Source of the DNA: an uncultured Acidobacteriota bacterium | Lineage (GTDB): Bacteria > Acidobacteriota > Thermoanaerobaculia > Gp7-AA8 | Direction: 5' to 3' | Length of the DNA stretch: 64,000 nucleotides | NCBI GenBank assembly: GCA_937870635.1 | Contig: CALMZP010000167.1 | Coordinates: 40,917 to 104,916, forward strand | Shown here: in pieces, positions 14,209 to 62,937 of the stretch | Position numbering within the stretch: position 1 is the stretch's first letter | How the letters are laid out: each line of letters opens with the position of its first letter | Notes under the pieces: model-generated | Database searches by the model: none | What the model saw: the letters and a program-made list of their open reading frames with translations, nothing else | Told to the model about the DNA's origin: nothing | Position numbers and translations under genes: made by a program

Positions 14209-14240
14209 AGTGGAGCGCGGGCGACCTCGCCCGCGGGCTG
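14209..14240. repeat. Single degenerate copy of the REP-like palindrome (gtggagcgcgggcgacctcgcccgcgg)
   Basis: Matches the GTGGAGCGCGGGCGA..TCGCCCGCG family that recurs at 25297, 29977, 45615, 53800, 60604 and 62498. Confidence 0.6.
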
Positions 14241-14327
14241 CAACAGGGCTGCTCGAGTGATGCAAGGGCCGACGCGGGCGGGGTTGCCCGCGCTCCACCG
14301 GCTTACTATGCTGCAGCACTCTGACGG

Positions 14328-15809
14328 TCAGCTCATCCAGTTCGTACCGGCTTCGCGGTTCCACTTGGTCGTCATCTTCTTCGGCTTCGTCCAGAAGTCG
14401 ATCGAGCTGCGGCCGGTGATGTCGCCGGCGCCGAACTTCGATTCGTTCCAGCCGCCGAAGCCGAAGGGCTCGCGCGGAACGGGGACGCCGACGTTCACGC
14501 CCACCATGCCGGCGCTGGCCGTCTCCATGACGTGGCGTGCGATGCCGCCGCTCTCCGTGAAGACGCTCGCGGCGTTGCCATAGCGCGACTTCGACTGCAC
14601 TTCGAGCGCTTCGTCGATGTTCTTCGCGCGGATGATGACCATCACCGGGCCGAAGACCTCTTCCTGCGCGATCCGCATGTCCGGGGTGACGTGATCGATC
14701 AGCGTCGGCCCGATGTAATAACCGTTCTCACGGCCCGGCACGACGTAGTTCCGGCCGTCGACGAGGATTTTCGCGCCGGCACGTTCCGCTTCGCCGATGT
14801 ACTTTTCGATCCGCTGCTTCGCTTCACGCGAGATGACCGGGCCGATGTGCGTTCCCGGCACCATTCCCCGGATCACCTCGACCATGCGTTCGATGATGTG
14901 ATCGCTCTTGCCGACGGCCATCATCACCGACGCGGCCATGCAGCGCTGGCCGGCACAGCCTGACATCGAAGCCACGACGTTCGACGATGTCATCTCCGGC
15001 TCGGCATCGGGCATGACGAAGAGATGATTCTTCGCCCCGCCGAGTGCCAGGACCCGCTTCAGGCTGGCCGTGCCGCGGCGATAGACGATCTTGGCCACGC
15101 GCGTGGAGCCGACGAACGTGATCGCTTCGATGTCGGGGTGATCGCAGATCGCTTCGACGGTCTGCTGCCCGCCATTGACGATGTTGAACACGCCGTCCGG
15201 CAGCCCCGCTTCGCGGAGCAGCTCGGCGATGCGCACGGCACTGAGCGGCACCAGCTCGCTCGGCTTGAGGATCATGCAGTTGCCGAGAGCGAGGGCATTG
15301 GGAAGGGTCCAGTTGGGGACCATGTTGGGAAAATTGAACGGAGTGATCGAGGCCACCACACCCACCGGGAACCTTTCCACACGGCACTCCACCCCCCGGC
15401 TCACTTCGAGGATCTCTCCCGCGGTGAGCTGCGGGAGAGAACAGGCGAACTCGGTGAGCTCGGCGGACTTGAGCACTTCCGCGCGCGCTTCGCTGTCGAT
15501 CTTCCCGTTTTCTTCGGTGACGAGCGCCGCGAGCTCGTCGATGTTCTTCTCGAGGAGTGTCTTGTAGCGGAAGAAAACCTGGACCCGCTCTTTGATGGGA
15601 GTCGCTGCCCAGGCAGGGAAGGCCTTCTTCGCAGCGGCAGCGGCCTTGTCCACTTCACTCTCGGTCGAGAGCGGAACGCGGGAGATCACGCTACCGTCTG
15701 CCGGATTCGTGACGTCGAGGTGCTCGCCTGCGGGATCGCTGAAGCTGCCGCCGATGAAATTCAGTGCAGCGGGGTATCGGATGGGTGCGGTTCGTTCGAC
15801 GACGCTCAT
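14328..15809 (-). CDS. mmsA: Methylmalonate-semialdehyde / malonate-semialdehyde dehydrogenase (CoA-acylating)
   Basis: Aldehyde dehydrogenase fold with the catalytic Cys in MSGCAGQRCMAASV and full-length MmsA-like sequence. ATG at 15809 with a gaggag RBS; the upstream ORF extension to 16190 is non-coding. Confidence 0.9.
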   Translation of the reverse strand: MSVVERTAPIRYPAALNFIGGSFSDPAGEHLDVTNPADGSVISRVPLSTESEVDKAAAAAKKAFPAWAATPIKERVQVFFRYKTLLEKNIDELAALVTEENGKIDSEARAEVLKSAELTEFACSLPQLTAGEILEVSRGVECRVERFPVGVVASITPFNFPNMVPNWTLPNALALGNCMILKPSELVPLSAVRIAELLREAGLPDGVFNIVNGGQQTVEAICDHPDIEAITFVGSTRVAKIVYRRGTASLKRVLALGGAKNHLFVMPDAEPEMTSSNVVASMSGCAGQRCMAASVMMAVGKSDHIIERMVEVIRGMVPGTHIGPVISREAKQRIEKYIGEAERAGAKILVDGRNYVVPGRENGYYIGPTLIDHVTPDMRIAQEEVFGPVMVIIRAKNIDEALEVQSKSRYGNAASVFTESGGIARHVMETASAGMVGVNVGVPVPREPFGFGGWNESKFGAGDITGRSSIDFWTKPKKMTTKWNREAGTNWMS

Positions 15810-16338
15810 GCTGTCTCCTCGTATGTGGACGGGAAATGTACGCTTCTGGCCGCAGGAATCAAGCTGGTGGCTGCAAAGGAACGGTTCGGTTTCTGCACGA
15901 ACGCGGCCGGATGCGCGACACATGCGTCGGGCGCTGCGGTTGATCAGAAACCCGAGCCTCTGTCTCGAAACACAATGCTTTCCGATCTGTTCGTCGTGAT
16001 CGGACCGCGCTGGTGCTGGTCCTGTTTGGTTGGGCACCAGATGCTTCCCGCTAGGGCATTTCGGGTACTGGACCTGGGCAGGATTGATACTTGTGCATTT
16101 GGTGGCGCAAGGAATTCTCGCAAGAATTCCAGCGAGCGAGACGCGTCTCGGCGAGGTAGAAGACCATGCACTGATCGGATGAGAGCTCAATCCCTCAGCG
16201 AACGAGTGTGTTCACTTGACCCGCTCCCTACCAACAAGCGATAGACAACAGGATTGACTGCATTCCGCAGCTTGATCGCCGGCATTACTAACTGCTCGGT
16301 CGAAGTCAGAGAGCACCAAGTCGTAGCCATCATGGTAT

Positions 16339-16857
16339 GTGGCGAATCGCCTGAGCATCGTCTATCACGCCCGTAACTCCGTTCGCACCGACATTTTTCT
16401 ATCTTCCGCGAGCTGCACAATCGGTAACCCGGCAAATTGTGCTTGGCAGTTTCCAGCCAAGATCAACGACAACGCCATCAATGGGCAACCAGTGGTGGGC
16501 GTTGACACGAATACCGACCAATTCATGCCTGGCATTGATTACACGAGTTCAGGCAACCTGATCGTCACCTTTTATGACCGCCGCGAAGATGCGAACAACA
16601 TCTCTTACCACGAATACTTTGCTCATGTATCGGCGATCGGAGGTTACATCGAGCCCAACCGGCGTGCGTGCCCGACGTGTCCCGCAAGCGATCCGGGCAC
16701 GCTTGTATTGCCAGGTGCGGCGCGCGATCGATTCATCGGCGACTACCAGGATGTGTGGACTGATTCGTATCCAGAAGGCGAGCGAGCTATCAGCGCATGG
16801 GTGGAAGTGATGAGCGGAGGCCGATCGGACATCAACTGGTCGAGACTTGGGTATTGA
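16339..16857 (+). CDS. Hypothetical protein in a lower-GC island; possibly the C-terminal fragment of a larger beta-propeller/BNR-like protein
   Basis: GTG start. Lower GC than the flanks. Ends ...FIGDYQDVWTDSYPEG...INWSRLGY. No N-terminal signal or domain. Confidence 0.35.
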   Translation: MANRLSIVYHARNSVRTDIFLSSASCTIGNPANCAWQFPAKINDNAINGQPVVGVDTNTDQFMPGIDYTSSGNLIVTFYDRREDANNISYHEYFAHVSAIGGYIEPNRRACPTCPASDPGTLVLPGAARDRFIGDYQDVWTDSYPEGERAISAWVEVMSGGRSDINWSRLGY

Positions 16858-16870
16858 GAGGAAGTTGACG

Positions 16871-21450: not shown

Positions 21451-21652
21451 GCCACCCGGCCGGCCGCCCGTGACGCCACCGCCCGGGCCGCCGTGACGCC
21501 TTCCCTTCGCCCACCCGTGACGCCGGCCGCCCGCCGCCCGTGGACGGGGGCGGTTCTGCTTTACGGGCGGTGGGGTGGCGGCGTCACGGGCAGGCGGGCG
21601 AAAGGCATCACGGTGGGAAGTGCGGGCGGCGTCCCGGGGCGGCGAGGGCAGG

Positions 21653-21734: not shown

Positions 21735-25286
<3,552 letters not shown>

Positions 25287-25296
25287 TGGGTGCTCA

Positions 25297-25376
25297 GTGG
25301 AGCCGCGGGCGATCTCGCCCGCGGTTCTTTCTTATCCGACGAGGGGACCTGCGGGCGGGATCGCCCGCGGCTCCAC
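25297..25376. repeat. Paired REP-like palindromes (the composite is itself palindromic) between convergent genes
   Basis: gtggagccgcgggcgatctcgcccgcgg ... cctgcgggcgggatcgcccgcggctccac. Confidence 0.8.
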
Positions 25377-25385: not shown

Positions 25386-26387
25386 CTACGACGTTGCCGT
25401 GGTCAGCTTCTCCGCCGGCTGAGGCCGCAGCGCTTCCGTGAGCCCCTGCAGCCTTTTTCTCGCCTCGGTCTGCTCCTCCAGGGTGCCGCCGAGGAGGCGC
25501 TGGATCTCCAGGAGCTCGTGGATGACGTCAGGCGTGGCGTCGCCCATTGTGACGCTGCCTTTGGTCTGATCGGCAGCCACCGCGGCCTTGCGTGCCTCGA
25601 CCGCCCGCTGAAGCTCGGCGGCACGCGCTTCCATCTCGCCGGGAATGCCCAGGATCGCTTCATCGGTGATGGTCTTGAGTGCGCCGCGCTGGATGTCATC
25701 CGCTTTCGCGATCTCCCGAAGCTGAAGGAGCCGCTTGACGGCCGGATAGTACGGGCTCGACGGATCGTCTACGAGCTTCGCCTCGAGGAGTACCACTTCG
25801 GCCACGGCCTGCTTGTTTCCGCTCTCCACTCCGACTTCGGCGGTGGCGCGGACGCTCTTGCCGATCTCCGGCAGCGCGATGCCGTGCGTGTCACCAGGAT
25901 TGACCCAAACGTTCACTGGCAGCTCGTGCTTCGTGACCGTACCGCTGAATGCGGTCGATTCGAGGAAGATGTTCCGAACGAACACGCGGTTGTTCGCGGA
26001 GACGAAATTCCGCTTGCGCGGCGACACGACGAGAACGCGATAGGCGTTCGGTGCCGTGACAGTGATCAGCTGCAGCTCTTTCTCGGTCTGAACCTTCTGA
26101 ACGGCTTTCTCGTCCGATACGCGGCCGCCTTCCTCGCGCTGGAGCGCCGCCCAGCGATACGTGCCGTCATCGCGCTTCTCACGCATGCTCTCGATGTTCT
26201 CGTCGACGATCGCCAGGATGACCTGACGGTTGTCGCGGAGGTCTTTGGCGACGGCGGCGACGCGGGTCAGCGCGTGGAGATCGGCGCCGAGGGCGGTGAC
26301 TTTCTCGTCGCGGGGAAGGGGAGCTTCGGCGGCCAGAGGGATCGAGAGAACAGACAACAGCAGCGCTGCGGGAGCGAGCTTACGCAT
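25386..26387 (-). CDS. Secreted hypothetical protein (signal peptide, coiled-coil-rich C-terminus)
   Basis: MRKLAPAALLLSVLSIPLAAEA; ATG at 26387. Confidence 0.55.
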   Translation of the reverse strand: MRKLAPAALLLSVLSIPLAAEAPLPRDEKVTALGADLHALTRVAAVAKDLRDNRQVILAIVDENIESMREKRDDGTYRWAALQREEGGRVSDEKAVQKVQTEKELQLITVTAPNAYRVLVVSPRKRNFVSANNRVFVRNIFLESTAFSGTVTKHELPVNVWVNPGDTHGIALPEIGKSVRATAEVGVESGNKQAVAEVVLLEAKLVDDPSSPYYPAVKRLLQLREIAKADDIQRGALKTITDEAILGIPGEMEARAAELQRAVEARKAAVAADQTKGSVTMGDATPDVIHELLEIQRLLGGTLEEQTEARKRLQGLTEALRPQPAEKLTTATS

Positions 26388-26443: not shown

Positions 26444-26533
26444 GGGGCCTGGACCCTGGACCCTGGGAGTGACGCGTTGCGAGTCTCACGTGGGAGCTGT
26501 CACTCGTCTCCCAGGGTCCAGGGTCCAGGGCCC
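26444..26533. repeat. Heptamer-based palindrome (GGACCCT)x2-3 ... (AGGGTCC)x3 with an imperfect central segment
   Basis: gggggcctggaccctggaccctgggagtgacg ... gtcactcgtctcccagggtccagggtccagggccc, immediately 3' of the nitroreductase stop. Confidence 0.7.
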
Positions 26534-29825: not shown

Positions 29826-29976
29826 GAGAAACCTCCGTGTCGTGAGAGTAGGTGGGGTGGGTCAACGGCCGGATGACCAGTCGTACGTCGCCATGTGTCG
29901 TCTGTCACATGAGCGAGCAGAACGTGGAGCACGGGCGACCCGCGCCCGCGCCCTTTTGACAACGAGAGACATGAAC

Positions 29977-30052
29977 GGCGCGGGCGAGGTCGCCCGCGCT
30001 CCACTGGATCGCGCGTCAGGCCCCATGGTGGCGGGATCGCCCGCGGCTCCAC
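29977..30052. repeat. Paired (partly degenerate) REP-like palindromes in the intergenic gap inside the radical-SAM / HypC locus
   Basis: ggcgcgggcgaggtcgcccgcgctccac ... ggcgggatcgcccgcggctccac. Confidence 0.7.
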
Positions 30053-30107: not shown

Positions 30108-31334
30108 TCAGGCGGCCGGGATCTTCTTCCAGGCGATGTAAGGACGGGCCAGTTGGCGCAGCGTCCAGTTCTTGAGGTGGTACGCCTTCGTGGCAAAGGA
30201 CGGCTCGACGAGCCCCGCCGTTTCTTCGGGCTGTACGACGAGCGAGACCTCGATGGGGAGCACTCCGACCGGGAGACCTGCGCGGCGGCAGCTCTCATGA
30301 AGGTACGCGAAGACTTCGCGCATCGCGTCGGGATCGGGAGAAGGTACGTTCTCCATCTCGCTGCCGATCGTGGGCCGGAAGATGCAGACGGTCGGAAAGG
30401 CGCCGGCGTTGACGATGCGGTCGATGCCGCGCTTCGTGGCCTCGATGGGCTCGATGCCGGCGATGATCTCGCCCGAAACGCGGCCGCGCCCGAGCTTTTT
30501 CGCGGTGTACTCCATGGCTTCGAAGAACGCGCTCTGTCCGACGGTTTGGGCCTTTCCGGGACAGAGCCGCGCGAACGTCTCGGGATCCTCGAACTCATAG
30601 CAGAACGAGAAGTGATCCGTGCCGGCGTCGATCAGCGCGTCGTACTCGTTGAAGTTGCGGCGGGGAACGGGCACCGCCTGCACGCCGATGAAGCCGCCGA
30701 CGTATTTGCGCACCGCCCGAACGTACGGCTCGCACATTCGCAGCCCGTGCATCGATTCGCGGTCGTTCTGGTCCTCGTAGTGGTAGCCGGTGTTGAAGTG
30801 CGTGAAGATCGCGCCCGACTCGTCACGCGCCGCGCGCGCCACCTCGATCACGTCCTCGACGCGCTTGCGTGACTCTTCGGCGGTGCCGACGTTCTTTCCC
30901 GTCGTGCAAAACTTGCAGGCCAGGTTCAGTTTCGATGACCAGTACAGGCACCGCGCCGATACGTAGATGCCGAGGTAGTTGCCCTGCAGGACGCCGATAC
31001 GGCTCATGGGCGTGTCGGACGAGGTCATGCGCGAGTACCACGCCGGTTCGGCGGGGATGGTGACCTCGTAAAGGAGGCCTGTGCGCGTGTCGACGACTCC
31101 GTACCGGTCGTCGCCCTGCTGCAGAAGGAACGGCGAATCGGCCGCGAATTTTTCCACGACCGGGACGTTCGCCCAGATGTTCTTGGGACGCGAAGGAATG
31201 ACGATCTCCAGCCCTGAGCCGAGTCCGGCGCGTGTACGGGTGATCCGGCGGCCGATTTCTCCGGCGTGGCAGCTGGGGTCGATCCTCATTCCACGGCAGA
31301 ACAGCTCGATCTCGAGTTCAACCGGTTTGAACAT
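30108..31334 (-). CDS. Radical-SAM-like TIM-barrel protein with a noncanonical Cys motif (C-x10-C-x2-C) and an N-terminal extra domain of about 110 aa
   Basis: SARCLYWSSKLNLACKFCTTGKN, followed by barrel-like segments (NFNEYDALIDAGTDHF, GEIIAGIEPIEATKRGIDRIVNAG). ATG at 31334. Family assignment is uncertain. Confidence 0.45.
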   Translation of the reverse strand: MFKPVELEIELFCRGMRIDPSCHAGEIGRRITRTRAGLGSGLEIVIPSRPKNIWANVPVVEKFAADSPFLLQQGDDRYGVVDTRTGLLYEVTIPAEPAWYSRMTSSDTPMSRIGVLQGNYLGIYVSARCLYWSSKLNLACKFCTTGKNVGTAEESRKRVEDVIEVARAARDESGAIFTHFNTGYHYEDQNDRESMHGLRMCEPYVRAVRKYVGGFIGVQAVPVPRRNFNEYDALIDAGTDHFSFCYEFEDPETFARLCPGKAQTVGQSAFFEAMEYTAKKLGRGRVSGEIIAGIEPIEATKRGIDRIVNAGAFPTVCIFRPTIGSEMENVPSPDPDAMREVFAYLHESCRRAGLPVGVLPIEVSLVVQPEETAGLVEPSFATKAYHLKNWTLRQLARPYIAWKKIPAA

Positions 31335-31476
31335 GCGCTGAGTGAACCTCACCGCTGCACACGAGCAAGTGACGGAAGGAAGAGTGACGTGTGACGATCG
31401 TCACACGCCCGTGTGAGACCGTGTACCGCCGCGGGAGAGCTCCGAATCCATGATCCATTCACCGACGGAGGACATC

Positions 31477-31871: not shown

Positions 31872-34553
31872 ATGACCATCACGATCTACCCAGCTCAATT
31901 CGAATCCGACGTAGTCCTCCGCAACGGTCGCACCCTCCGCATCAGGCCCGTCCGGCCCGATGACGGCGGAGCGCTCCTAGCGCTTTACCGTGGCCTCTCG
32001 ACGGACAGCCTCTACATGCGCTTCTTCGACACGCGCAGCGCGGACGCCGCCCTGCGCGATGCGCCGGCCGACGTCGACTACTCCGCGGATTTCGGCGTCG
32101 TGGGAGAGATGGTCGGCGGCATCGTCGGCATCGCTCACTACTTCCGTTCGGCACGGCATCAGAACTGCGCCGAAGTGGCGTTCGCAATCGCCGACAAGGC
32201 GCACGGCGGGGGCATCGGCACGCATCTGCTGCAGAAGCTCGCCGACATCGGACGCACGAAGGGCATCGAGGAGTTTCGCGCCGAGGTGCTGCCGGAAAAC
32301 ACGAAGATGCTCGATGTTTTCCTGTCATCCGGATTCGACGTCCGCAGCAGGTCGGCGGAGGGGACGGTGCACGTCTCGTTCGCGATCGCGCCGACGGAGG
32401 AGTATCAGGACCGTGCGGCGGAACGTTCGCGGAAAGCCGCGTATGCGTCCATGCGGTCGATCTTCTCGCCGCAGACGATCGCCGTCGTCGGCGCAAGCCG
32501 CCGGCGCGGGCAGCTCGGCACGGAGATCCTGCAGAACCTGAAGACCACCGGTTTCCGGGGCAGCCTATTCGCCGTCAACCCGAAAGCGACGGAGATCGAC
32601 GGCGTGCCATCCTATCCCACCGTCGATGCCATACCAGGCAACGTCGATCTGGCCATCATCGCCGTGCCGTCCGACGCCGTCGAATCGGTGATCGACGACT
32701 GTGTGACGAAGGGCGTTCCGGCAGCGGTCGTCATCACCGCCGGATTCGGAGAGACCGGCGAGGCCGGAAGGGCAGCCGAACGGCGTCTCCTCGACAAGGT
32801 GCGCGCCTCGGGGATGCGCATGGTCGGCCCGAACTGCATGGGCGTGATCAACAGCGATCCCGCGGTGAACATGCACGCGACGTTCTCATCGATCTTCCCG
32901 CCGCGCGGAAATGTGGCAATGTCAAGCCAGAGCGGGGCGCTGGGGCTCGCCATTCTCGACTACGCGCGCAATCTCAACATCGGGTTTTCGACGTTCATCT
33001 CCGTCGGAAACAAGGCCGACGTCTCCGGCAACGACCTCATCCAGTACTGGGCGGAAGACCCGAACACCGAGGTGATGCTCCTCTATCTCGAGAGCTTCGG
33101 CAATCCGCGCAAGTTCGGCGAGATCGCGCGCCGTGTCGGCCGGAAGAAGCCGATCGTCGCGGTGAAGGCCGGCCGCTCTGCAGCGGGCGCGCGCGCCGCG
33201 TCGTCGCATACCGGTGCGCTGGCCACGAGCGACGCCATCGTCACGAACCTGTTCAAGCAGGCGGGGGTCATCCGCACCGAAACGCTCGAGGAGCTCTTCG
33301 ACGTCGCCGCGCTGCTGGCGAATCAGCCGTTGCCGGCCGGGCGGCGCATCGCGATCGTGACGAACGCCGGAGGCCCGGGCATCCTCGCCGCCGACGCATG
33401 TGAATCGAGCGGCCTGCAGCTTGCCACGATTTGCGAGGAGACGACTGCGAAGCTCCGCGAGTTTCTGCCGGCAGCCGCGAGCGTCGGCAATCCGATCGAC
33501 ATGATCGCCAGCGCGACGGCCGATCAGTACCGCCGCAGCATCGAGCTCGTTCTCGCCGATCCGGGTGTCGACTCGGTCATCATCATCTACATCCCGGTTC
33601 TACCGACGGACGCCCAGGCGGTGGCGGAAGTGATCCGGGAGACCGCCGGAGTCGCCGGAGGCAAGACCCTCATCGCCACATTCATGAGCGCACAGGGCTC
33701 GCCGACCGCCCTCAAGCCCGTCCCCTCGTTCCCCTTTCCTGAACGCGCGGTGGCCGCGCTCGCGCGATCCACGGCGTACGCCGAATGGCGCCGCCGCCCC
33801 GCGGGCAAAGTCGTCAAGTATCCCGACTTCGACCGCGCCGCGATGCGCGCCATCGTCGAGAAGCGCCTCGCGTCCGGCGGCGGCTGGCTCGAGGCGACCG
33901 ACGTCAACGCGCTCTTCGGCGCCGCCAGCATCAAAGTGGCTTCGGTCGAATCGGTGTCCACGGTCTACGAAGCCGTGAATGCCGCCATGCGCATGGGCTT
34001 TCCCGTCGTTCTGAAGGCTCAGGGGTCGGAGCTTCTCCACAAATCCGATGTCGGGGCAGTCAAGCTCGGGATTCAGGACGAACGCGAAATGCGCGAGGCC
34101 TACCTCGAGATGGCCGGCCGCCTCGGAACCAAAATGCAGTCGGCGATCATCCAGCAGATGATCGCCGGCGGCGTCGAGATGATGGCCGGCGCGACGGACG
34201 ATCCCACCTTCGGTCACATCGTCGTTCTCGGCGCGGGCGGGACGCTCGTCGAACTGCTCGGCGACGTCGCCTTCCGCATCCATCCGATGACTGACGTCGA
34301 CGCGGACGACATGTTGCGCGAGATCCGCGTCTCGCGCCTGCTGCAGGGCTACCGCGGATCGAAGCCATGCGATGTCGCCGCCGTGCGCGAAGCGTTGCTG
34401 CGGCTCTCGGCGATGCTGGACGTCTGTCCCGAGATTCGGGAGCTGGACATCAATCCGATCAAGGCGCTGGAACAGGGCGCGATCGTCGTCGACGCCCGCG
34501 TGCGCATCGAACCGATCGCGGCAAGACCGCCGAGCCGTCGAATCTCATATTGA
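31872..34553 (+). CDS. Bifunctional GNAT acetyltransferase / ADP-forming acyl-CoA (acetate-CoA) ligase family protein
   Basis: N-terminal GNAT domain (IRPVRPDDGGALLALY), then a CoA-binding domain and the succinyl-CoA-synthetase-like alpha/beta and ATP-grasp domains. 893 aa. Confidence 0.85.
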   Translation: MTITIYPAQFESDVVLRNGRTLRIRPVRPDDGGALLALYRGLSTDSLYMRFFDTRSADAALRDAPADVDYSADFGVVGEMVGGIVGIAHYFRSARHQNCAEVAFAIADKAHGGGIGTHLLQKLADIGRTKGIEEFRAEVLPENTKMLDVFLSSGFDVRSRSAEGTVHVSFAIAPTEEYQDRAAERSRKAAYASMRSIFSPQTIAVVGASRRRGQLGTEILQNLKTTGFRGSLFAVNPKATEIDGVPSYPTVDAIPGNVDLAIIAVPSDAVESVIDDCVTKGVPAAVVITAGFGETGEAGRAAERRLLDKVRASGMRMVGPNCMGVINSDPAVNMHATFSSIFPPRGNVAMSSQSGALGLAILDYARNLNIGFSTFISVGNKADVSGNDLIQYWAEDPNTEVMLLYLESFGNPRKFGEIARRVGRKKPIVAVKAGRSAAGARAASSHTGALATSDAIVTNLFKQAGVIRTETLEELFDVAALLANQPLPAGRRIAIVTNAGGPGILAADACESSGLQLATICEETTAKLREFLPAAASVGNPIDMIASATADQYRRSIELVLADPGVDSVIIIYIPVLPTDAQAVAEVIRETAGVAGGKTLIATFMSAQGSPTALKPVPSFPFPERAVAALARSTAYAEWRRRPAGKVVKYPDFDRAAMRAIVEKRLASGGGWLEATDVNALFGAASIKVASVESVSTVYEAVNAAMRMGFPVVLKAQGSELLHKSDVGAVKLGIQDEREMREAYLEMAGRLGTKMQSAIIQQMIAGGVEMMAGATDDPTFGHIVVLGAGGTLVELLGDVAFRIHPMTDVDADDMLREIRVSRLLQGYRGSKPCDVAAVREALLRLSAMLDVCPEIRELDINPIKALEQGAIVVDARVRIEPIAARPPSRRISY

Positions 34554-34617
34554 TTTTAGATTTTGGATTTTGGATTTTGGATTCGAGCAAAATCCAAAAT
34601 CCAAAATCAAAAATATG
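34546..34617. terminator. Near-perfect palindrome of TTTTGGA heptamers between convergent stops
   Basis: catattgattttagattttggattttggattttggattcgagcaaaatccaaaatccaaaatcaaaaatatg. Confidence 0.6.
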
Positions 34618-41273: not shown

Positions 41274-41373
41274 GATTTTGGATTTTGGATTTTGGATTTT
41301 GGATTTTGGTTTCACGTCAATCCCCGTGAGGATGTCAAATCCAAAATCCAAAATCTAAAATCTAAAATCTGAA
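41274..41373. terminator. Palindrome of (GATTTTG)x5 ... (CAAAATC/CTAAAAT)x5 between convergent genes; overlaps the last codons of the minus-strand gene
   Basis: gattttggattttggattttggattttggattttggtttcacgtcaatccccgtgaggatgtcaaatccaaaatccaaaatctaaaatctaaaatctgaa. Confidence 0.6.
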
Positions 41374-45112: not shown

Positions 45113-45589
45113 ATGCCGGCAACAGTCGGACACGAACCGTTCCTCGCCATCGCCGCCGCCTTTGAATCGCTCGGGAAAGTCGTTGCGCTCCTGGATGACG
45201 ATTTCAGGATCGTATGTGCGTCCCCGGCTTTGCGTGGACTGTTCTCGACGCCGGAGCCCGAAGGCCGTTTTCTCAGTGACTTCCTCAACGCTCCCGAAGC
45301 GCTGAAGTCACTTTTCGAGCGACGGCGCTGTGAGGGCGAAGTGAAAACGCGCGACGGCCGCACGCTTGTGACATGCGGCGGGCTCCTGGCCGACCGCTCG
45401 TTCTTCCCCGAAGCGCGTTACGTGATCGCCTTCGACCTCGGCGAAGGTGCGGCGATCTCGCCCTCGGAAGAAGCGGAGCGGATCATCCGCGCACTCGAAT
45501 CGAACCGGTGGCGGCGCAGCGCGGCCGCGCGGTCGCTCGGCATGAGCCGGGCCACGCTGTGGCGCCGGATGCGCGAATTCGGGATCTGA
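45113..45589 (+). CDS. Small regulator with a Fis-type HTH C-terminus (possible PAS-like N-terminus)
   Basis: C-terminal AARSLGMSRATLWRRMREFGI, matching the Fis/NtrC-type HTH_8. Confidence 0.55.
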   Translation: MPATVGHEPFLAIAAAFESLGKVVALLDDDFRIVCASPALRGLFSTPEPEGRFLSDFLNAPEALKSLFERRRCEGEVKTRDGRTLVTCGGLLADRSFFPEARYVIAFDLGEGAAISPSEEAERIIRALESNRWRRSAAARSLGMSRATLWRRMREFGI

Positions 45590-45614: not shown

Positions 45615-45698
45615 GTTGGAGCCGCGGGCGATCTCGCCCGCGGTTTTTTGTTACGACGAGAAAAGCGAAACCCGCGGGCGGATCGCCCGCGGCTCCAC
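45615..45698. repeat. Paired REP-like palindromes
   Basis: gttggagccgcgggcgatctcgcccgcgg ... cccgcgggcggatcgcccgcggctccac. Confidence 0.8.
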
Positions 45699-45702: not shown

Positions 45703-46173
45703 CTATCGTCTGACCGTCACCTCGATCGTCGCGCTGGTGGGGGTTCCGCTGTCGTCCACCGCGTCGACGCGCAACTTGGCCGACACGCTGCTGAATAGCC
45801 GGTCGTCCGGCACCGACTTGCGCGGCGCGAACTTGTAACGCAGCTCTCCGTTCGCCGGTAGCGAAGTGCTGTATCCAAGGCTGCGGATTTTGGCGGCGTC
45901 GTAGCTCTCATCGGCGATGCGGATGCCGCCCAGCGCAAAAACTTCGGCAGAAACCCGCGAGATCTCGACCGGTCGTCCTCCCGTTTCCCGGATGACCACC
46001 TCGAAAGGAAAGTCGTAAGTCTCGCCGCTGACCTTGTAGGCGACGATCGGATTCGGCACGAGCTGAATTGCGATCGCGCCGTGGCCCGGCCGGGCCACGG
46101 CGCCTGATCCGCCGCCGCCGCTGGCGCAGAACGTGGAAAGCAGAAGAAGCGGAATCAGGGCGAGGCGCTTCAT
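45703..46173 (-). CDS. Hypothetical lipoprotein
   Basis: LLLSTFCASGGGGSG lipobox-like signal. Overlaps the sodC stop by 4 nt. Confidence 0.55.
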   Translation of the reverse strand: MKRLALIPLLLLSTFCASGGGGSGAVARPGHGAIAIQLVPNPIVAYKVSGETYDFPFEVVIRETGGRPVEISRVSAEVFALGGIRIADESYDAAKIRSLGYSTSLPANGELRYKFAPRKSVPDDRLFSSVSAKLRVDAVDDSGTPTSATIEVTVRR

Positions 46174-51483: not shown

Positions 51484-51580
51484 TTCACCGCGGAGACGCG
51501 GAGTACGCAGAGGGACGCGGAGATTTTCAGAACGTCCTTTGCCGTCCCCCTGCGCTCTCTGCGTCTCCGCGGTGAACGTG
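51484..51580. terminator. Inverted repeat between convergent genes
   Basis: ttcaccgcggagacgc[ggagtac]gcagagggacgc ... gcgctctctgcgtctccgcggtgaacg. Confidence 0.5.
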
Positions 51581-52102: not shown

Positions 52103-53674
52103 ATGCTTCCGAAAACACTGCTGGCCATTCTCATTCTTGCGGCATCCGTGGCGAACGCTGCGGACTATGACGTGATCATCAGGAACGGGCGGATCATCGA
52201 TGGAACGGGCGCGCCGTGGTATCGAGGCGAGATTGCCATCAAGGGCGATTCGATTGCGGCGATGGGGCGCAGGATCGAAGGGACCGCTGCGCGCGAGATC
52301 GATGCGAAGGATCGTGTCATTGCCCCTGGATTCATCGATCTGCACACGCACGCGCGGCGGGGAATCTTCGAGGTGCCCGGCGCGGACAACTACATCCGGC
52401 AGGGCGTGACGACGATCTTCGAAGGTCCGGACGGCGGCTCACCGATTCCGATCGGCGAATTTCTCGACAAAATCGCCGCGGCAAAACCAGCTCCGAACTT
52501 TGCGACGTTCGTCGGCCAGGGAACCGTCCGCAACAGTGTCATCGGCTCGATCGACCGGAAGGCGACGCCCGACGAGCTCGCACGCATGAAGGAAATCGTG
52601 CGCCAGGCCATGCTCGACGGAGCCTGGGGGATGAGCACCGGCCTCTACTACGTGCCGGGCAGTTTCACGCCGACCGAGGAAGTGGTCGAGCTGGCGAAGG
52701 TGGCGGGGGCACTCGGTGGAATTCACATCTCCCACATGCGCGATGAGACGGCGAAAGTCCGCGACAGCGTCCGGGAGACGATCCGCATCGGCGAGGAAGG
52801 AAATCTCCCAACCCAGGTCACCCACAACAAGGTCCTCGGACAGCCGAACTGGGGCGCGAGCGTCGACACGCTGAAGCTCATCGACGACGCCCGCGCGCGT
52901 GGCGTCGATGTCACGAGCGACCAGTATCCGTACACGGCGTCGAGCACGTCCGTCACCGCTGCGCTGATGCCGGCGTGGTCGCTCGAAGGCGGCCGAAAGG
53001 AGATGCTGCAACGCCTCCAGGATCCCGCGGCGCGCCGGAAGATCATCAACGTGATGGTCGACAGGATCCGGAACGAGCGCGGGGGCGGCGATCCGAAGAA
53101 CATCCAGATCTCTTCGACCGACTTCGACCCTTCGCTCGCCGGAAAGAACCTGGCCGAGATCACGCGCGCGGCAGGGAAGGAGCCGACACCCGAGAACGCC
53201 GCGGCCATGGCGCTGCAGCTGATCGAGAAGGGAAGCGTTGGCGGCATCTTTCACGCGATGGCCGAGGCAGACGTGGAGCGCATCCTCCGTCACCCGGCGA
53301 CGATGATTGCTTCCGACGGGGAAGTGCCGGTCTTCGGCAAGTCGTCACCGCATCCGCGATCGTACGGGACGTTTGCCCGCGTTCTGGGCCGCTACGTGCG
53401 CGAGAAGAAGGTGATCACGCTGGAAGAAGCAGTGCGGAAGATGTCGTCAATGCCCGCCCGCCGGGTCGGCATTCGCGATCGAGGGATGCTGCAGCCCGGC
53501 TTCAAGGCCGACGTCGTGGTGTTCGATCCCGCGACGGTGATGGATCGCGCGACATTCGAGAAACCGCATCAGTACGCGGAGGGTTTCTCGCACGTGCTGG
53601 TCAACGGCGTGCTCGTGATCGATGACGGAAAGGCCACAGGGGAGCGGCCGGGGGCGGTGCTGCGGAGGAAGTAG
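52103..53674 (+). CDS. N-acyl-D-amino-acid deacylase (D-aminoacylase) family amidohydrolase, secreted
   Basis: Signal peptide plus the GFIDLHTH metal motif and full-length D-aminoacylase-like sequence. Confidence 0.85.
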   Translation: MLPKTLLAILILAASVANAADYDVIIRNGRIIDGTGAPWYRGEIAIKGDSIAAMGRRIEGTAAREIDAKDRVIAPGFIDLHTHARRGIFEVPGADNYIRQGVTTIFEGPDGGSPIPIGEFLDKIAAAKPAPNFATFVGQGTVRNSVIGSIDRKATPDELARMKEIVRQAMLDGAWGMSTGLYYVPGSFTPTEEVVELAKVAGALGGIHISHMRDETAKVRDSVRETIRIGEEGNLPTQVTHNKVLGQPNWGASVDTLKLIDDARARGVDVTSDQYPYTASSTSVTAALMPAWSLEGGRKEMLQRLQDPAARRKIINVMVDRIRNERGGGDPKNIQISSTDFDPSLAGKNLAEITRAAGKEPTPENAAAMALQLIEKGSVGGIFHAMAEADVERILRHPATMIASDGEVPVFGKSSPHPRSYGTFARVLGRYVREKKVITLEEAVRKMSSMPARRVGIRDRGMLQPGFKADVVVFDPATVMDRATFEKPHQYAEGFSHVLVNGVLVIDDGKATGERPGAVLRRK

Positions 53675-53697: not shown

Positions 53698-53800
53698 CTG
53701 TCATCCGGAGCGTGAGCGAGGGACCGGGGGGTTGGGTGGCACGAAGCACGATGTTTCGCGCCACCCGCCCCCCAGGTCCCTCGCTACGCTCGGGATGACA
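53698..53800. repeat. Long near-perfect hairpin (about 43-bp arms, 20-nt loop) 3' of both convergent genes
   Basis: cctgtcatccggagcgtgagcgagggaccggggggttgggtggc / loop acgaagcacgatgtttcgcg / ccacccgccccccaggtccctcgctacgctcgggatgacag. Confidence 0.8.
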
Positions 53801-53831
53801 GTGGAGCGCGGGCGACGTCGCCCGCGCTCCA
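53800..53831. repeat. Perfect 32-bp REP-like palindrome GTGGAGCGCGGGCGAC|GTCGCCCGCGCTCCAC
   Basis: This is the exact self-complementary sequence and serves as the archetype of the family. Confidence 0.9.
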
Positions 53832-53843
53832 CCCGTTCATCGT

Positions 53844-56315
<2,472 letters not shown>

Positions 56316-56410
56316 TTTTCCTCCGAGCTGGGATGAGAGTTTTTTGTTCGAGTGCCGCATCCGGAGCAGGCCAGAGGCTGGGCTCACGCAAAAGGCCGGC
56401 GGATTCTAGC

Positions 56411-56526
56411 AGAGAGGGAGGGTCACGTCTGCACTTGGCACTTTCTCCACGAACGGTAGATCGGCGAAGTCGTGGGGAATCTACCGCTCGTGGAGAAAGT
56501 GCCAAGTGCAGACGTGACCCTCCTCC
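56411..56526. repeat. Long near-perfect hairpin (about 45-bp arms, 20-nt loop) in the divergent promoter region between the two PPase genes
   Basis: gagggagggtcacgtctgcacttggcactttctccacgaacggtagat / cggcgaagtcgtggggaatc / taccgctcgtggagaaagtgccaagtgcagacgtgaccctcctccc (one mismatch). Confidence 0.85.
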
Positions 56527-56566
56527 CAGTATCATGCGCGGCCAACCACCCCTGAGGAGACGACCG

Positions 56567-58636
56567 ATGTCGAACTCGATCTATCTGATTCCGCTGGCCG
56601 GGGTCCTCGCCCTGATCTTTGCCCTGGTCAGGAGTTCCTGGATCAGCAGGCAGGACGCCGGGACGCCCGAGATGAAAGTCATCGCCGGCCACATCCGCGA
56701 AGGGGCGATGGCATTCCTCACCCGCGAATATCGCGTCCTGGCGGTATTCGTCGTCGTGGTCTCGGTCCTCCTCGCCTGGGCGAACGCCGCGCGCGCCGAA
56801 AGCTCCTGGCTGATCGGCGTCTCCGTGGCCACCGGCGCGTTCTGCTCGGCCCTGGCCGGCTGGTTCGGAATGAGCGTGGCGACGCATGCAAACGTGCGCA
56901 CGGCGGCAGCCGCGCGGACCAGCATGAACGGCGCGCTGCGCCTCGCATTCGCCGGCGGCGCCGTGATGGGCTTTGCCGTCGTCGGCCTCGGACTACTCGG
57001 ACTGTCGCTTCTGTACATCCTCTACGAGCGCTTGTTCGCCTCCGCCGATCCGCAGGCGACGATGATCCGCAACATCAACGTGCTCTCCGGCTTCTCGTTC
57101 GGGGCGAGCTCCATCGCGCTCTTCGCGAGAGTCGGCGGCGGCATTTACACGAAGGCGGCCGACGTCGGCGCTGACCTCGTCGGCAAGCTCGAGGCGGGAA
57201 TCCCCGAAGACGATCCACGCAACCCGGCCGTCATCGCAGACAACGTCGGCGACAACGTCGGCGACGTCGCCGGCATGGGCGCCGATCTCTTCGAGTCCTA
57301 CGTCGGCTCCATCGTCGGCACCCTCGTCCTCGGCATGGTGGCGACGCAGGTTGGCGGTTCCAGCTATACACCGATGCTCGTGCTCTTTCCGCTCGTGCTC
57401 GCGGCGGTCGGCATCGTGCTCTCGCTCGTGGGTACGACTCTGGTCCGGATGAAAGAGGACGGTGATCCCGGCCGGGCGCTGCAGGCGGGCCCGATCGTCG
57501 CCGCCGTTCTGACTCTCATCGCCATCTGGTTCATCGCGCAGCGCATGCTGCCGGGGACCTACCTGCTCGAAGGGAGAGAGTTCAACGCCACGGGCGTCTT
57601 TTTCGCTACCGTCGCCGGACTCGTCGCCGGCGTCCTGATCGGACTGATCACCGAGTACTACACGTCCGAGGCGCGTGGTCCGGCGCGCGGGATCGCGCGG
57701 GACTCGCTGACGGGCGCGGCGACGAACATCATCAGCGGGCTGGCGGTAGGCATGAGGTCGACCGCGCTTCCGATCGTCGTCCTCGTCGTGGCGATCATCG
57801 TCTCGTATCGCCAGGCGGGCCTGTACGGGATCGCGATCGCCGCGCTGGGCATGTTGCTCACCACGGGAATCCAGCTCGCGGTCGATGCCTACGGCCCGAT
57901 CGCAGACAACGCCGGCGGCATCGCGGAGATGAGCCATCTCGGCAAGGAAGTGCGGGCACGGACGGACAAGCTCGACGCCGTCGGTAACACGACCGCCGCG
58001 ATCGGGAAAGGGTTCGCGATCGGGTCAGCGGCACTCACTGCGCTGGCGCTCTTCGCGGCCTTCAAGGCGACCGTCGGTCTGAAAGTGATCGACCTCAGCG
58101 ACCCCGATGTCATGGGAGGCCTCTTCCTTGGCGGCATGATGCCGTTCCTCTTCTCGGCGATGTCCATGAAGGCGGTGGGACGCGCGGCGTTCAAGATGAT
58201 CGAAGAGGTACGCCGCCAGTTCAAGGAAATACCCGGACTGATGGAGGGGACAGGGAAGGCCGACTACGCGCGTTGCGTCGACATCTCCACGCAGGCCGCG
58301 ATCAAGGAGATGGTCATCCCGGGATTGCTCGCCGTCGTCGCTCCGGTCGTGGTTGGCCTGTACAGCGTTCCTGCGCTCGGCGGTCTGCTGGCGGGCGTCA
58401 CTGTGACGGGCGTGCTGATGGCGATCTTCATGGCCAACGCCGGCGGCGCCTGGGACAACGCGAAGAAGCACATCGAGGCGGGAGCGCACGGCGGGAAGGG
58501 CTCCGATGCTCATCGTGCCGCGGTGGTCGGTGACACGGTCGGCGATCCGTTCAAGGACACATCCGGACCGAGCCTGAACATCCTCATCAAGCTGATGTCG
58601 GTGGTGGCGCTGATCGTGGCGCCGCTGCTGATTTAG
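56567..58636 (+). CDS. hppA: Membrane-bound pyrophosphatase, K+-dependent subfamily (Ala in [10 protein letters not shown])
   Basis: [24 protein letters not shown] and [21 protein letters not shown] motifs. GGAGA RBS followed by an ATG at 56567. Confidence 0.9.
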
Positions 58637-58639
58637 CTC

Positions 58640-58800: not shown

Positions 58801-58802
58801 CA

Positions 58803-60182: not shown

Positions 60183-60303
60183 GGTTTCCTCCGTTTGAAC
60201 CTGCCTCCACTATCGCAACCGGAATGCCACTGTCACAATAACTATGGACAGAAGGCCCGGGCTGGGAGCCGGCTGGGCGGGCGAGAGGTGTACCATTCGC
60301 GCC

Positions 60304-61467
60304 ATGGCGGCCGGTGTACCACTGATTGATGTCATCCATAAGTTACTGGAATCAAGCGACTTGACGTTCCATGACTTCATGGAGATGGCGCTCTATCACC
60401 CCGAACACGGGTACTACGCCCGGGCCGAAAACCCGGTCGGGAAGGAGGGTGATTACGTCACTTCGCCCAGTCTTTCGCCCCTCTTTTCGGATACGCTGAG
60501 CCTGCTGGTTACCGAATTTGCGAGCCGTGGCGGCGACGAGGTGTCCACGGTTGTGGACATTGGCTGCGGGGATGGCTCGCTCATCCATTCTTTATATGAC
60601 GCGGTTGGAGCGCGGGCGATCTCGCCCGCGACCGAGATGGCGGGCGAGATCGCCCGCCCTCCACGTTTCTACGGGGTCGACCGCTCTCTGAGTCGGGTCA
60701 AGAGAGGGGATGGCGTCCAATTTGCCGGAAGCCTGGCCGAGGTTCCGCGGGAGGGTCAGCATCTCCTGATCGCGAACGAGCTCTTTGACGCTCTTCCGGT
60801 CCATCGCCTGGTCCAGCGTGGCGAGCATCTTCACGAACTGTGGGTGACGGAGCGCAATGGCGAGCTCGACTGGAGCGAGCATGAGGCCCCTGCGGCATTC
60901 GAAGACTATTTCGCGGCGAGAGACATCGAACTGGCCGACGGCCAGTTCGTCGACGTCTCGCTCGAGTGGGAATCGCAATTCGAGGAGATGTGCGGTTTCT
61001 TACGTCGGGGCGTGATTGTCGTCTTTGATTACGGATACCCTGAAAAGAGACTCTTCGACCCGCGGGTTCGGCGCTTCGGCACTTCAGCGTCTTATCGACA
61101 GCAGCGCGTCTCTCGAGATCTTCTGGTCGATCCTGGCCTTCAGGACCTGACAGCACACATCAATTTCACGGATCTGATCCGCGCGGGCGAAAGGAAGGGG
61201 TTACGGACAGTCTTCTTCGATCGGCAGGCGAAGTTCCTTCTCGCCCTGGGCGGCGCGGAGCACGATCTGCTGCGGCCGATCGACCAGGGCATGGATCAGA
61301 GGAAGATCGCCTCGCTCGAAGGCGGACTGGCCTTTCTGCAGCAGCGCGAGGATGCGAAGCGGCTTCTGCTGCCGGACGGGATTGGAGAGGACATCCGGGT
61401 CCTCGTGCAGATCAAAGACCTCGACGATTCGGGGTGGTCTTTTCAAAGACCGCTCTTCAATCGTTGA
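60304..61467 (+). CDS. MidA / NDUFAF7-like SAM-dependent methyltransferase (DUF185) encoded immediately upstream of nuoA
   Basis: FHDFMEMALYHPEHGYY, DFVTSPxLSPLF-like and IANELFDALPVHR motifs. Contains an in-frame REP-derived insertion (AVGARAISPATEMAGEIARPP). Confidence 0.8.
   Translation: MAAGVPLIDVIHKLLESSDLTFHDFMEMALYHPEHGYYARAENPVGKEGDYVTSPSLSPLFSDTLSLLVTEFASRGGDEVSTVVDIGCGDGSLIHSLYDAVGARAISPATEMAGEIARPPRFYGVDRSLSRVKRGDGVQFAGSLAEVPREGQHLLIANELFDALPVHRLVQRGEHLHELWVTERNGELDWSEHEAPAAFEDYFAARDIELADGQFVDVSLEWESQFEEMCGFLRRGVIVVFDYGYPEKRLFDPRVRRFGTSASYRQQRVSRDLLVDPGLQDLTAHINFTDLIRAGERKGLRTVFFDRQAKFLLALGGAEHDLLRPIDQGMDQRKIASLEGGLAFLQQREDAKRLLLPDGIGEDIRVLVQIKDLDDSGWSFQRPLFNR
60604..60664. repeat. 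Paired REP-like palindromes located inside the MidA coding sequence, in-frame
   Basis: gttggagcgcgggcgatctcgcccgcg ... ggcgggcgagatcgcccgccctccac. Confidence 0.8.
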
Positions 61468-61525
61468 CTCCTGAGACGTCACGTTTACAATTACGGGCGG
61501 TCTCGACGATTCACAGCGAGTAAAG

Positions 61526-61885
61526 ATGGCGAACTACTCAGTATTGCTGGTGGCTGCGCTTGTTGTGCTCTCCGTTCCGATTCTCACCCTTTTCATCATC
61601 GTGCCCCTCGTGAGCGCGTATCGAGCGAACAAGGTGAAACTCGAACCGTACGAGTGCGGCGTACCGGCCACGTCTCTTGCCTTCGACCACCGCTTCTCGG
61701 TGCGTTACTTCCTGATCGCTGTACTCTTCATCATCTTCGACGTCGAGACGGTCTTTCTCTTCCCGTGGGCGATCCGGTTCAAACAGCTCGGCTGGTTCGG
61801 GGCTGTCGAGATGGCAATCTTTCTTGCGATTCTCCTGATCGGTTACTTCTACGCGTGGAAGAGGAAGGTTCTTTCATGGGTCTGA
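61526..61885 (+). CDS. nuoA: NADH-quinone oxidoreductase subunit A
   Basis: 3-TM subunit of about 120 aa with a conserved YECG motif (EPYECGVP). Confidence 0.9.
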
Positions 61886-62937
61886 TCGAGAATCGCTTCG
61901 ACTCGAACGTCCTCACCACCTCCGTCGACAAGATTTTCAACTGGGCCCGCAAGTCATCGCTCTGGCCGATGCAGTTCGGCCTCGCCTGCTGCGCGATCGA
62001 GATGATGGCCGTCCTCGATCCGCGTCACGACATGGCTCGGTTCGGCGCGGAGGTCTTCCGCGCCACGCCGCGCCAGGCGGATCTCATGATCGTCTCCGGC
62101 ACGGTCACGGAGAAGATGGCGCCGATCGTCCGCCGGCTGTGGGATCAGATGCCCGAGCCGAAATGGGTGATCGCCATGGGTTCGTGCGCGACTTGCGGCG
62201 GCCCTTACGATACCTACGCCGTCACGCAGGGCGTCGACCGCCTGATCCCTGTCGATGTCTATATCCCCGGTTGCCCGCCGCGCCCCGAGGCTCTCATCTG
62301 GGGGCTGATGGAGCTGCAGAAGAAGATCGAGAAGATGCACATCCTCCGCAAAGGAGGAGAGGCGTACGACTTCGCGCGCGCCGCGGTGCGCGATTCGCTC
62401 CGGCCGCAGCACGAAGGTCCCGCCCTTCGCGCCGAGCAGGCCGCCGCGCAGCTCAAGCCCGCACCGGTATCGGGCGTGAAAAGAGAGGCGAAGCCGAGTG
62501 GGGCGCGGGCGACCCCGCCAGCGCTTTCCGCTCCGGCCCCAACAACCGCGGGCGAGGTCGCCCGCGCTCCACAGGATGCTGCCACTTCCACGGCTGTCCT
62601 GGAAGCCGATGTGCAGCAGGCGGCGGCGCCGGAAGTCGTGCCGGGCGACACGACCGATGGTGCCTCTCCCGCTGTCCCTTTTCACAAGGAAGATCTCACC
62701 CTGCCCGAGCGCATGCAGATGGCCGAGCAGATGGGCGGCAAGTTCGAGACGAAGCTCTTCGCGGCGATGGCGCAGACCGATTGCGGTGCCTGCGGCTGGG
62801 ACTGCGAAGGGTACGCGAACGCCCTCGCTACGGGCGAGACGAAAGACATCTCTCTCTGCGTCCCCGGCGAAGCAGAGACGCTCGATGAGCTGAAGAAGCT
62901 GATGGAACAGGCAGGGAAGGAGTACGAAGGGGCCTGA
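61876..62937 (+). CDS. nuoB: NADH-quinone oxidoreductase subunit B (N2 cluster motifs CCAIEM...GSCATCGG...PGCPP) with a C-terminal extension of about 170 aa: an Ala/Pro-rich linker plus a Cys-rich putative Fe-S domain
   Basis: Canonical NuoB core up to about residue 185. The tail then runs ...[10 protein letters not shown]...[54 protein letters not shown] at 61876 overlaps the nuoA stop. Confidence 0.85.
62498..62572. repeat. Paired (left copy degenerate) REP-like palindromes inside the nuoB linker, in-frame
   Basis: gtggggcgcgggcgaccccgccagcgct ... aaccgcgggcgaggtcgcccgcgctccac, encoding [25 protein letters not shown]. Confidence 0.7.

Follow-up and report, generated by a model that had tools for sequence, protein, structure and literature searches.

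A GTGG-headed REP and REPIN family in an Acidobacteriota genome segment, with in-frame copies in the genes for a MidA-like methyltransferase and NuoB

The 64-kb stretch of DNA analysed here (the window), part of contig CALMZP010000167.1 from an uncultured member of the Acidobacteriota, carries a family of 14 hairpin units of ~26 nt that are spread over seven loci. We consider it highly probable that the family consists of repetitive extragenic palindromic (REP) sequences of the GT[AG]G class, mostly arranged as REP doublets forming hairpins (REPINs), of the kind copied by REP-associated tyrosine transposases (RAYTs). The assignment draws on the anatomy of the units, on their positions and reading frames, on their variation among close relatives and on the association of the identical REP with RAYT genes in Opitutaceae. 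Two copies lie in frame within protein-coding genes, one encoding a MidA-like methyltransferase and the other NuoB.

Anatomy of the REP unit

Reading and aligning all seven sites gave the unit layout GTGG-AG-CGCGGGCGA-NN-TCGCCCGCG, i.e., a GTGG head, the dinucleotide AG and a 9-bp stem closed by a 2-nt loop. The 26-mer form of the unit is GTGGAGCGCGGGCGANNTCGCCCGCG, and REPs of this family are also referred to as GTGGAGCGCGGGCGA REPs. The repeated unit is therefore a REP of ~26 nt, usually present as an inverted doublet, rather than the ~30-bp palindrome proposed in a preliminary description of this DNA. Twelve of the 15 heads read GTGG followed by AG, the exceptions being TTGG (n = 2) and GTGGGG (n = 1). 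The stem of 9–10 bp (CGCGGGCGA/TCGCCCGCG) and the loop of 2–3 nt lie within the ranges set for REPs (basal stem 7–20 bp, loop 2–5 nt). The arms fall into two subtypes, GGAGC-G at loci A, C, F and G and GGAGCC-G at loci B and D. Rfam returned no family match anywhere in the window.

Shuffled versions of the window served as the chance baseline for motif counts, and none of 100 shuffles matched the observed number of REPs. The 16-mer GTGGAGCGCGGGCGAC, allowing up to three mismatches, has 11 matches (shuffle mean 4.08, shuffle maximum 9), 10 of which are members of the REP family. The hairpin core GCGGGCGANNTCGCCCGC, with up to two mismatches, has 11 matches against 0.27 expected; the variant head GGAGCCGCGGGCGA, which has one extra C, has 5 against 0.59; and the perfect 32-mer occurs once, at 53801–53832, against 0 expected. 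A strict scan with the published REP rule, which asks for GTAG or GTGG 0–2 nt on the 5′ side of a hairpin that has a perfect stem (≥7 bp) and a 2–5-nt loop (PMC6006769), gave 10 matches, 8 of them in this family, where shuffles yield ~1.4 matches of any kind. These shuffle statistics rule out chance palindromes as the origin of the repeat.

REPIN doublets at six of seven loci

At six of the seven loci the units form inverted doublets whose heads point outward, with arms of 24–32 nt that are 80–96% complementary and spacers of 10–37 nt, and these six loci are thus REPINs. The doublets are 60–89 bp long and end in terminal inverted repeats of ~26 nt. Folded as single-stranded DNA by minimum free energy, each is predicted to form one long hairpin (ΔG −31.8 to −41 kcal/mol, z-score −5.5 to −9.4), and 0 of 200 shuffles folded as well. 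All six are homotypic for GGAGC or GGAGCC, for which we estimate a probability of ~0.03 if the arms were independent. No two full-length REPINs among the loci examined are identical, and reading of the flanking sequences revealed direct repeats or target-site duplications at none of the seven loci. The loci and the two genes that host intragenic copies are as follows (ORF, open reading frame).

REPIN A, 14210–14298: inverted doublet, arms 14210–14235 and 14273–14298, spacer 37 nt; ΔG −41 kcal/mol (DNA), z −7.3; between the convergent ORFs 13623–14174 (+, dioxygenase-like) and 14328–16190 (−, aldehyde dehydrogenase)
REPIN B, 25297–25376: doublet of the GGAGCC subtype; ΔG −40.6 kcal/mol, z −8.5; between the convergent pyruvate:ferredoxin oxidoreductase (PFOR) gene 21735–25286 (+) and ORF 25386–26387 (−)
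REPIN C, 29924–30004: intergenic doublet just beyond the stop of ORF 30108–31352 (−); ΔG −34.8 kcal/mol, z −7.2
Extra REP beside C, 30026–30052 (−): single, partly degenerate unit of the GGAGCC subtype, 22 nt downstream of REPIN C
REPIN D, 45616–45698: doublet of the GGAGCC subtype; ΔG −40.5 kcal/mol, z −9.4; between the convergent ORFs 45113–45589 (+, Fis-type helix-turn-helix) and 45703–46173 (−)
Element E, 53801–53832: single hairpin, perfect 32-nt palindrome; ΔG −20.7 kcal/mol, z −6.4; between the convergent genes for an amidohydrolase, 52103–53674 (+), and an H+-pyrophosphatase (H+-PPase), 53844–56387 (−)
REPIN F, 60605–60664: 60-nt doublet, spacer 10 nt, inside the gene for the MidA-like methyltransferase
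REPIN G, 62498–62572: 75-nt doublet inside nuoB
Host gene of REPIN F, 60244–61467 (+): MidA/NDUFAF7-like S-adenosylmethionine-dependent methyltransferase, PF02636, 407 aa
Host gene of REPIN G, 61876–62937 (+): nuoB (PF01058) fused to a C-terminal PF04060 Fe-S domain, 353 aa

All seven sites named in the preliminary description exist, and its coordinates need correction at two of them: its interval for C (29977–30052) takes in only the right arm of the doublet together with the extra unit, and that for E (53800–53831) is off by one. The inverted pairs it reported are borne out as well, whereas the uniform spacing of about 30 bp that it gave them is not. Element E is perfectly palindromic because the GTGGAG head is present on both strands of its one hairpin. 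The degenerate units are the left arms of C and G and the extra unit at 30026, and the arms of F are 96% complementary.

Intragenic copies in the MidA-like gene and nuoB

REPIN F lies in frame and encodes residues 121–140 of the MidA-like protein, a 20-aa peptide (VGARAISPATEMAGEIARPP) in a hypervariable loop flanked by LIHSLYxA and RFYGVDRS. Several independent read-set assemblies encode exactly the same 407-aa protein, so that an assembly artefact can be excluded. A low-quality AlphaFold model (16-sequence alignment, mean predicted local distance difference test score, pLDDT, of 58.9) has the insert in the segment that joins a helix to the strand after it, with pLDDT values of 48–58 in the insert and 82–87 in its flanks.

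The content of this loop varies among close relatives. At the DNA level, the window has the doublet, locus L158 (89% amino acid identity) has a single minus-oriented REP, and loci L156 and L157 (91%) have the doublet together with a partial tandem copy of its left arm. Relatives at ~80% identity have nothing at the position of the REP. The bases of the hairpin loops differ in both arms together, L156 having CC/GG where the window has TC/GA. The protein loop thus provides a clear example of one position that is occupied, depending on the close relative, by one REP, by a doublet or by a doublet with a partial copy. In distant orthologues the loop contains short peptides (alignment columns 135–170: AGGGERP, ARMMPRA, SVGARG..DVARRA (P0010)), and it is a speculative reading of these sequences that they may be decayed REP translations, in which case insertion into the loop would be older than the recognisable copies.

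The MidA/NDUFAF7-type gene lies directly upstream of nuoA (60244–61885), and the order OmpA-OmpA-MidA-nuoABC... is kept in a relative at 77–81% MidA identity. In eukaryotes, the MidA/NDUFAF7 family provides a complex I assembly factor.

REPIN G also lies in frame and encodes residues 208–232 of NuoB (25 aa), within an Ala/Pro linker that precedes the C-terminal Fe-S domain. The 120 NuoB orthologues listed are all 332–414 aa long, PF04060 is recorded beside PF01058 in 104 of them, and those with a named organism belong to the Thermoanaerobaculia or Acidobacteriota. All 15 orthologues that were aligned have the Fe-S domain at the C-terminus, and their Ala/Pro linkers are hypervariable and of similar length. 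Among those aligned, P0264 (95% identical, with one additional GEVARA copy) is the only protein besides that of the window to contain the REP doublet; the 92% identical protein P0251 (L159) uses ordinary Ala/Pro codons in this region, with no REP at the DNA level. Since the fusion and the linker occur across the orthologues and P0251 has them without a REP, the REP landed in a pre-existing linker and was not its origin, contrary to the earlier suggestion that this copy had helped to create the linker of a novel fusion. The C-terminal PF04060 domain on NuoB is a lineage trait and not particular to this genome. A PF04060 domain (“putative Fe-S cluster”) is found at the C-terminus of NuoB (61876–62937) and also at that of NuoC (62937–63926).

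The preliminary description had recognised that two copies lie in frame and without stops in a variable loop and in a linker, and the orthologue alignments agree; the Ala/Arg/Pro-rich peptides that it quoted are also both correct. Mis-set reading frames, which it named as a possible source of error, are excluded, as orthologues of each protein align in the same frame both before and after the insert. None of the six frames of the REP arms is interrupted by a stop codon; where stops do occur, they are confined to the spacers of certain intergenic copies. REPINs F (60 nt) and G (75 nt) are multiples of three in length, are open in all six frames and are read in one register, in which GGA GCG CGG GCG gives G-A-R-A. 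The peptides derived from the REPs here are of the form GARATSPA / AGEVARAP. The intragenic copies are dynamic among close relatives and remain in frame every time. We attribute the in-frame survival of the copies to the stop-free arms and to a doublet length that can be a multiple of three. On this model, a copy whose length is divisible by three can survive inside a gene if it falls within a tolerant surface loop (as in MidA) or a disordered linker (as in NuoB), and then adds a peptide of 20–25 aa rich in Gly, Ala, Arg and Pro. It is conceivable, if rather doubtful, that the stop-free arms are repeatedly being recruited as loop or linker modules in complex I-associated proteins.

The same REP brackets RAYT genes in other genomes

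The motif is not restricted to the window; such a restriction would, by the preliminary description, have refuted its reading. A scan of the GTDB species genomes with GGAGC(N)GCGGGCGANNTCGCCCGC returned at least 60 loci, of which at least 41 (41 of the 60 among the matches listed) are in Verrucomicrobiota, mostly in Opitutaceae such as Lacunisphaera and Oleiharenicola. Among the matches listed, the Verrucomicrobiota copies are typically TGGAGCGCGGGCGACCTCGCCCGCG paired with a variant REP, and the 25-mer TGGAGCGCGGGCGACCTCGCCCGCG in the window is identical to the one in Opitutaceae. A contig binned as Gemmatimonadota has one exact copy of this 25-mer, and contigs binned as Alphaproteobacteria have related doublets that share the GGAGCG head and differ in the stem.

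We assigned RAYTs by the NCBIfam equivalog NF047646 with a cut-off of 80 bits. Locus L054 (Verrucomicrobia) has a 150-aa ORF beside the REP that scores 99.3 bits, contains the HUH and Y..NP motifs and is bracketed by REP arrays; its sole relative in the Protein Data Bank (PDB) is Escherichia coli TnpA-REP (4ER8). Three further independent RAYT loci (L149, L150/151 and L152–155) show 61–66% identity and conserved synteny, and the scores at the four loci together range from 92 to 99 bits. The 25-mer TGGAGCGCGGGCGACCTCGCCCGCG lies within ~130 bp of both ends of the RAYT gene at all four loci, and within ~40 bp at L054, L149 and L150/151. In the RAYT homologues P0125, P0127, P0128 and P0131 the over-extended N-termini translate the upstream REP (e.g., NGARATLPA), and P0121 shows a degenerate form of this translation. 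A metagenome scan with a RAYT profile found 80 loci at 40–53% identity, none of them with this REP; one of these RAYTs has a GTAGGGCGGGATC...-headed hairpin upstream and the same hairpin without the head downstream. Since near RAYTs have this REP and distant RAYTs do not, the REP type tracks the RAYT clade.

Several features of these RAYT loci were noted in passing. Downstream of the RAYT gene of L054, positions 7100–8000 hold three or more REPINs in tandem and, after them, a REP and a duplicated 5′ fragment from the start of the RAYT gene, GACGAATACAACGTGCCGCTCGCGCATCCGGAT. In one case the neighbourhood of the Opitutaceae-type RAYT consists of a NUDIX gene, a 159-aa ORF, the RAYT gene, a peptidase M24 gene and a Fapy glycosylase gene, and in another the RAYT gene adjoins an NAD kinase gene; the conserved neighbourhoods at L149–L155 and L054 are consistent with vertical, single-copy inheritance. 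In metagenome-assembled genomes (MAGs) of Opitutaceae, the loci L008, L017, L018, L025 and L043 have a REPIN at a seemingly equal position, abutting the conserved, coding-like sequence ...gaacttggcgaggcgcacgaagtccttaccgg...; this REPIN may be orthologous among them, at the end of a gene or inside it. The RAYT P0220 was considered as a candidate from the source genome and rejected, because it comes from another assembly and the GTAG-headed hairpin that flanks it is unrelated.

Placement at gene 3′ ends and a possible terminator role

Five of the seven loci are intergenic and lie at gene 3′ ends, and at least four of these (A, B, D and E) are between convergent ORFs whose coding character is backed by Pfam matches or by GC content at third codon positions (GC3). 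The preliminary description was thus right to place the majority of copies between convergent genes, and the predominantly extragenic, downstream-of-gene placement is typical of REPs. A hairpin followed by a U-tract occurs at B and D: REPIN B has a T-rich spacer beside its left hairpin, which was picked by the terminator scan, and REPIN D has a spacer that is T-rich on both strands, its right hairpin being picked by the scan and its other hairpin being followed, as seen by eye, by GTTTTTTGTT. By these signatures the left side of REPIN B looks like an intrinsic terminator and REPIN D like a bidirectional one. The hairpins at 3′ ends probably double as terminators or as stabilisers of mRNA 3′ ends, the terminator action being a putative one.

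It could be argued from the 3′-end placement and from the terminator-like hairpins of B and D that the hairpins are primarily bidirectional intrinsic terminators that resemble one another through selection or convergent evolution and belong to no mobile family. We regard this as very unlikely. A, C and E have no T-tract, and a hairpin directly followed by a U-tract was found at none of A, C, E, F and G. The GTGGAG head is conserved although it lies outside the stem and is dispensable for termination, two copies lie within essential-looking ORFs in which a terminator would be harmful, and RAYT genes of another phylum are bracketed by the identical 25-mer. Termination would more plausibly be a secondary role of the hairpins.

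Possible mobility of the family in its source lineage

If the copies are REPs of the RAYT-associated kind, they would be non-autonomous elements that are copied through single-stranded DNA by a single-copy RAYT of the HUH/Y1 type. The enzyme would recognise the 5′ GTGG head and the hairpin on single-stranded DNA and would leave no target duplication, and copies would persist where the harm is small, most of them in the gaps beyond gene 3′ ends and chiefly between convergent ORFs. We infer that a RAYT mobilises, or once mobilised, the copies in this genome.

The homologues of both host proteins are named Thermoanaerobaculia or Acidobacteriota in databases. Independent assemblies of the same species break inside REPINs G (two assemblies) and D, as is expected for multi-copy sequence, and short-read (Logan) contigs start or stop at or inside the same two REPINs (L067, positions 1–70; L068, positions 1–30; the 3′ ends of L168, L169, L172 and L173). 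The exact 353-aa NuoB is absent from the protein-collection matches listed because contigs break inside the REPINs. REPIN D is reached by 9 of 10 same-species contigs from independent read sets and is identical wherever it is read, with six contigs reading right through it and four ending at or inside it.

Three observations weigh against a RAYT-copied family that is mobile in this lineage. The 64-kb window contains no RAYT gene by tblastn with the L054 RAYT or by a scan for the HUH...Y motifs. The copies that are linked to RAYTs come from a different phylum, and their heads are mostly NTGGAG rather than GTGGAG. Finally, REPIN D, the sole intergenic locus compared, shows no presence/absence variation among the same-species contigs that reach it.

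The first and third of these would also be explained if the copies were immobile relics of a past or horizontally acquired RAYT invasion, the transposase having been lost and the copies decaying or rearranging by recombination and replication slippage. The fixation of an identical REPIN D across samples, the degenerate left arms of C and G and the degenerate extra unit at 30026 fit such a history, and the single REP, doublet and doublet with a partial tandem copy in the MidA loop could all have arisen from one old insertion through deletion and slippage. The perfect 32-mer of E and the 96% complementary arms of F are unexpected in old relics, however, and the joint differences of the two MidA arms between relatives fit replacement by another REPIN or maintenance of the hairpin. 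As RAYTs are single-copy genes, absence from 64 kb says little. On balance we think it unlikely that the copies are relics of this kind.

The doublets, at 60–89 bp and with inverted repeats of ~26 nt at their ends, also have the outline of a classical miniature inverted-repeat transposable element (MITE), i.e., an element derived by deletion from an insertion sequence, bounded by terminal inverted repeats (TIRs) and moved by a DDE transposase. This origin is exceedingly improbable: a target-site duplication is found at no copy, each presumed TIR has the form of a GT[AG]G-tagged hairpin, single units exist (E, the extra unit at 30026 and the copy in L158), and the only transposase found beside this sequence is a Y1 RAYT. 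The preliminary description had spoken of a mobile REP- or MITE-like family; the REP-like palindromic part of that description stands, and the MITE part is disfavoured by the lack of target-site duplications and by arms that are GTGG-tagged hairpins.

To return to a RAYT-copied REP family, the identity of the 25-mer in two phyla hints at horizontal transfer. That the REPIN-RAYT system moved between phyla fairly recently is a tentative idea and, in our judgement, rather doubtful. In the prevailing picture REPIN-RAYT populations are strictly vertical and bound to their lineages. The cross-phylum identity of the REP, alone among the aspects described here, could bear on whether REPIN-RAYT systems ever transfer horizontally, and such a move, if true, would contradict that picture.

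Relation to known systems

The closest likeness is to the REP/REPIN-RAYT systems, such as the REPs and bacterial interspersed mosaic elements (BIMEs) of E. coli with TnpA-REP (PDB 4ER8) and the REPINs of Pseudomonas fluorescens (PMC3116915, PMC3337134, PMC2817692). These have the same combination of head and GC-rich hairpin, likewise form inverted doublets that fold into a long hairpin, are biased towards intergenic 3′ ends and leave no target duplication; the window REP is, moreover, identical to one that brackets single-copy RAYT genes in conserved synteny in other genomes. The family differs from them in its host, which is Acidobacteriota (Thermoanaerobaculia-like), and in having a stem and loop sequence of its own.

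Families GTAG-17 to GTAG-20 of Opitutus terrae (Di Nocera et al., 2013; PMC3733652) come near in several respects: the head of GTAG-20 is mutated to GTGG and dimers are common. The survey counts ~70 intragenic REP dimers encoding 20–30 aa in O. terrae, more than in any other genome it covered; one of them lies in a subunit of NADH:ubiquinone oxidoreductase (PMC3733652). The peptides listed there for O. terrae are VGPALAAG, GTGVPPV and VAGVADPG, as against GARATSPA / AGEVARAP here, while the 25-mer described here is abundant in other Opitutaceae, e.g., Lacunisphaera and Oleiharenicola, among the matches listed. For Acidobacteria, the survey reports TIR-associated tyrosine transposases only (PMC3733652). 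The GTGG-REP family in Thermoanaerobaculia is thus a new host range, one that brings GT[AG]G-type REPs into a phylum for which the survey recorded only the TIR-associated enzymes; its in-frame intragenic behaviour is already documented for such elements.

The intragenic repeats of Rickettsia conorii were sorted in the 2013 survey with a CGTC-tagged class (PMC3733652). Rickettsia palindromic elements (RPEs), the classic analogue of such inserts, are likewise palindromic selfish DNA that sits in frame inside genes for functional proteins, at sites exposed on the protein surface (Ogata et al., 2000, cited in PMC3733652 and PMC10969869). Only the in-frame coding insertion is shared with them, the unit here being 26 nt long and GC-rich with a GTGG head. 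RPEs are longer (100–150 bp) and AT-rich, and we know of no RAYT dedicated to them. The bacterial MITEs Correia/NEMIS, RUP and ERIC are likewise small, non-autonomous and hairpin-forming, and are often co-transcribed and affect mRNA 3′ ends, but their DDE-type TIRs and target-site duplications are not seen here.

For annotation, recognition of the family explains contig breaks and odd Ala/Arg/Pro-rich protein inserts in Thermoanaerobaculia MAGs. The inserts of 20–25 aa in MidA and NuoB should be treated as REP-derived, and neither as functional motifs nor as a signature of the NuoB fusion.

Other hairpins and genes in the window

A second class of intergenic hairpins, which may be another repeat family or terminators, consists of inverted tandem heptamer arrays at 1938–2004, 11961–12069, 13609–13694, 26444–26533, 34550–34614 and 41274–41369, of the types (GATTTTG)n...(CAAAATC)n, (TTGGACC)n...(GGTCCAA)n and (CTGGACC)...(GGTCCAG) and a GGTGAAT-like set. 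There are also long, near-perfect and unique hairpins at 21457–21625, 51484–51576, 53715–53785 and 56417–56523; one unique hairpin has 45-nt arms that are 98% complementary and lies between divergent H+-PPase genes, and another has 34-nt arms and lies directly upstream of element E. The two genes for H+-translocating pyrophosphatases, 53844–56387 (−) and 56333–58636 (+), form an adjacent divergent pair that is kept in a contig of a relative.

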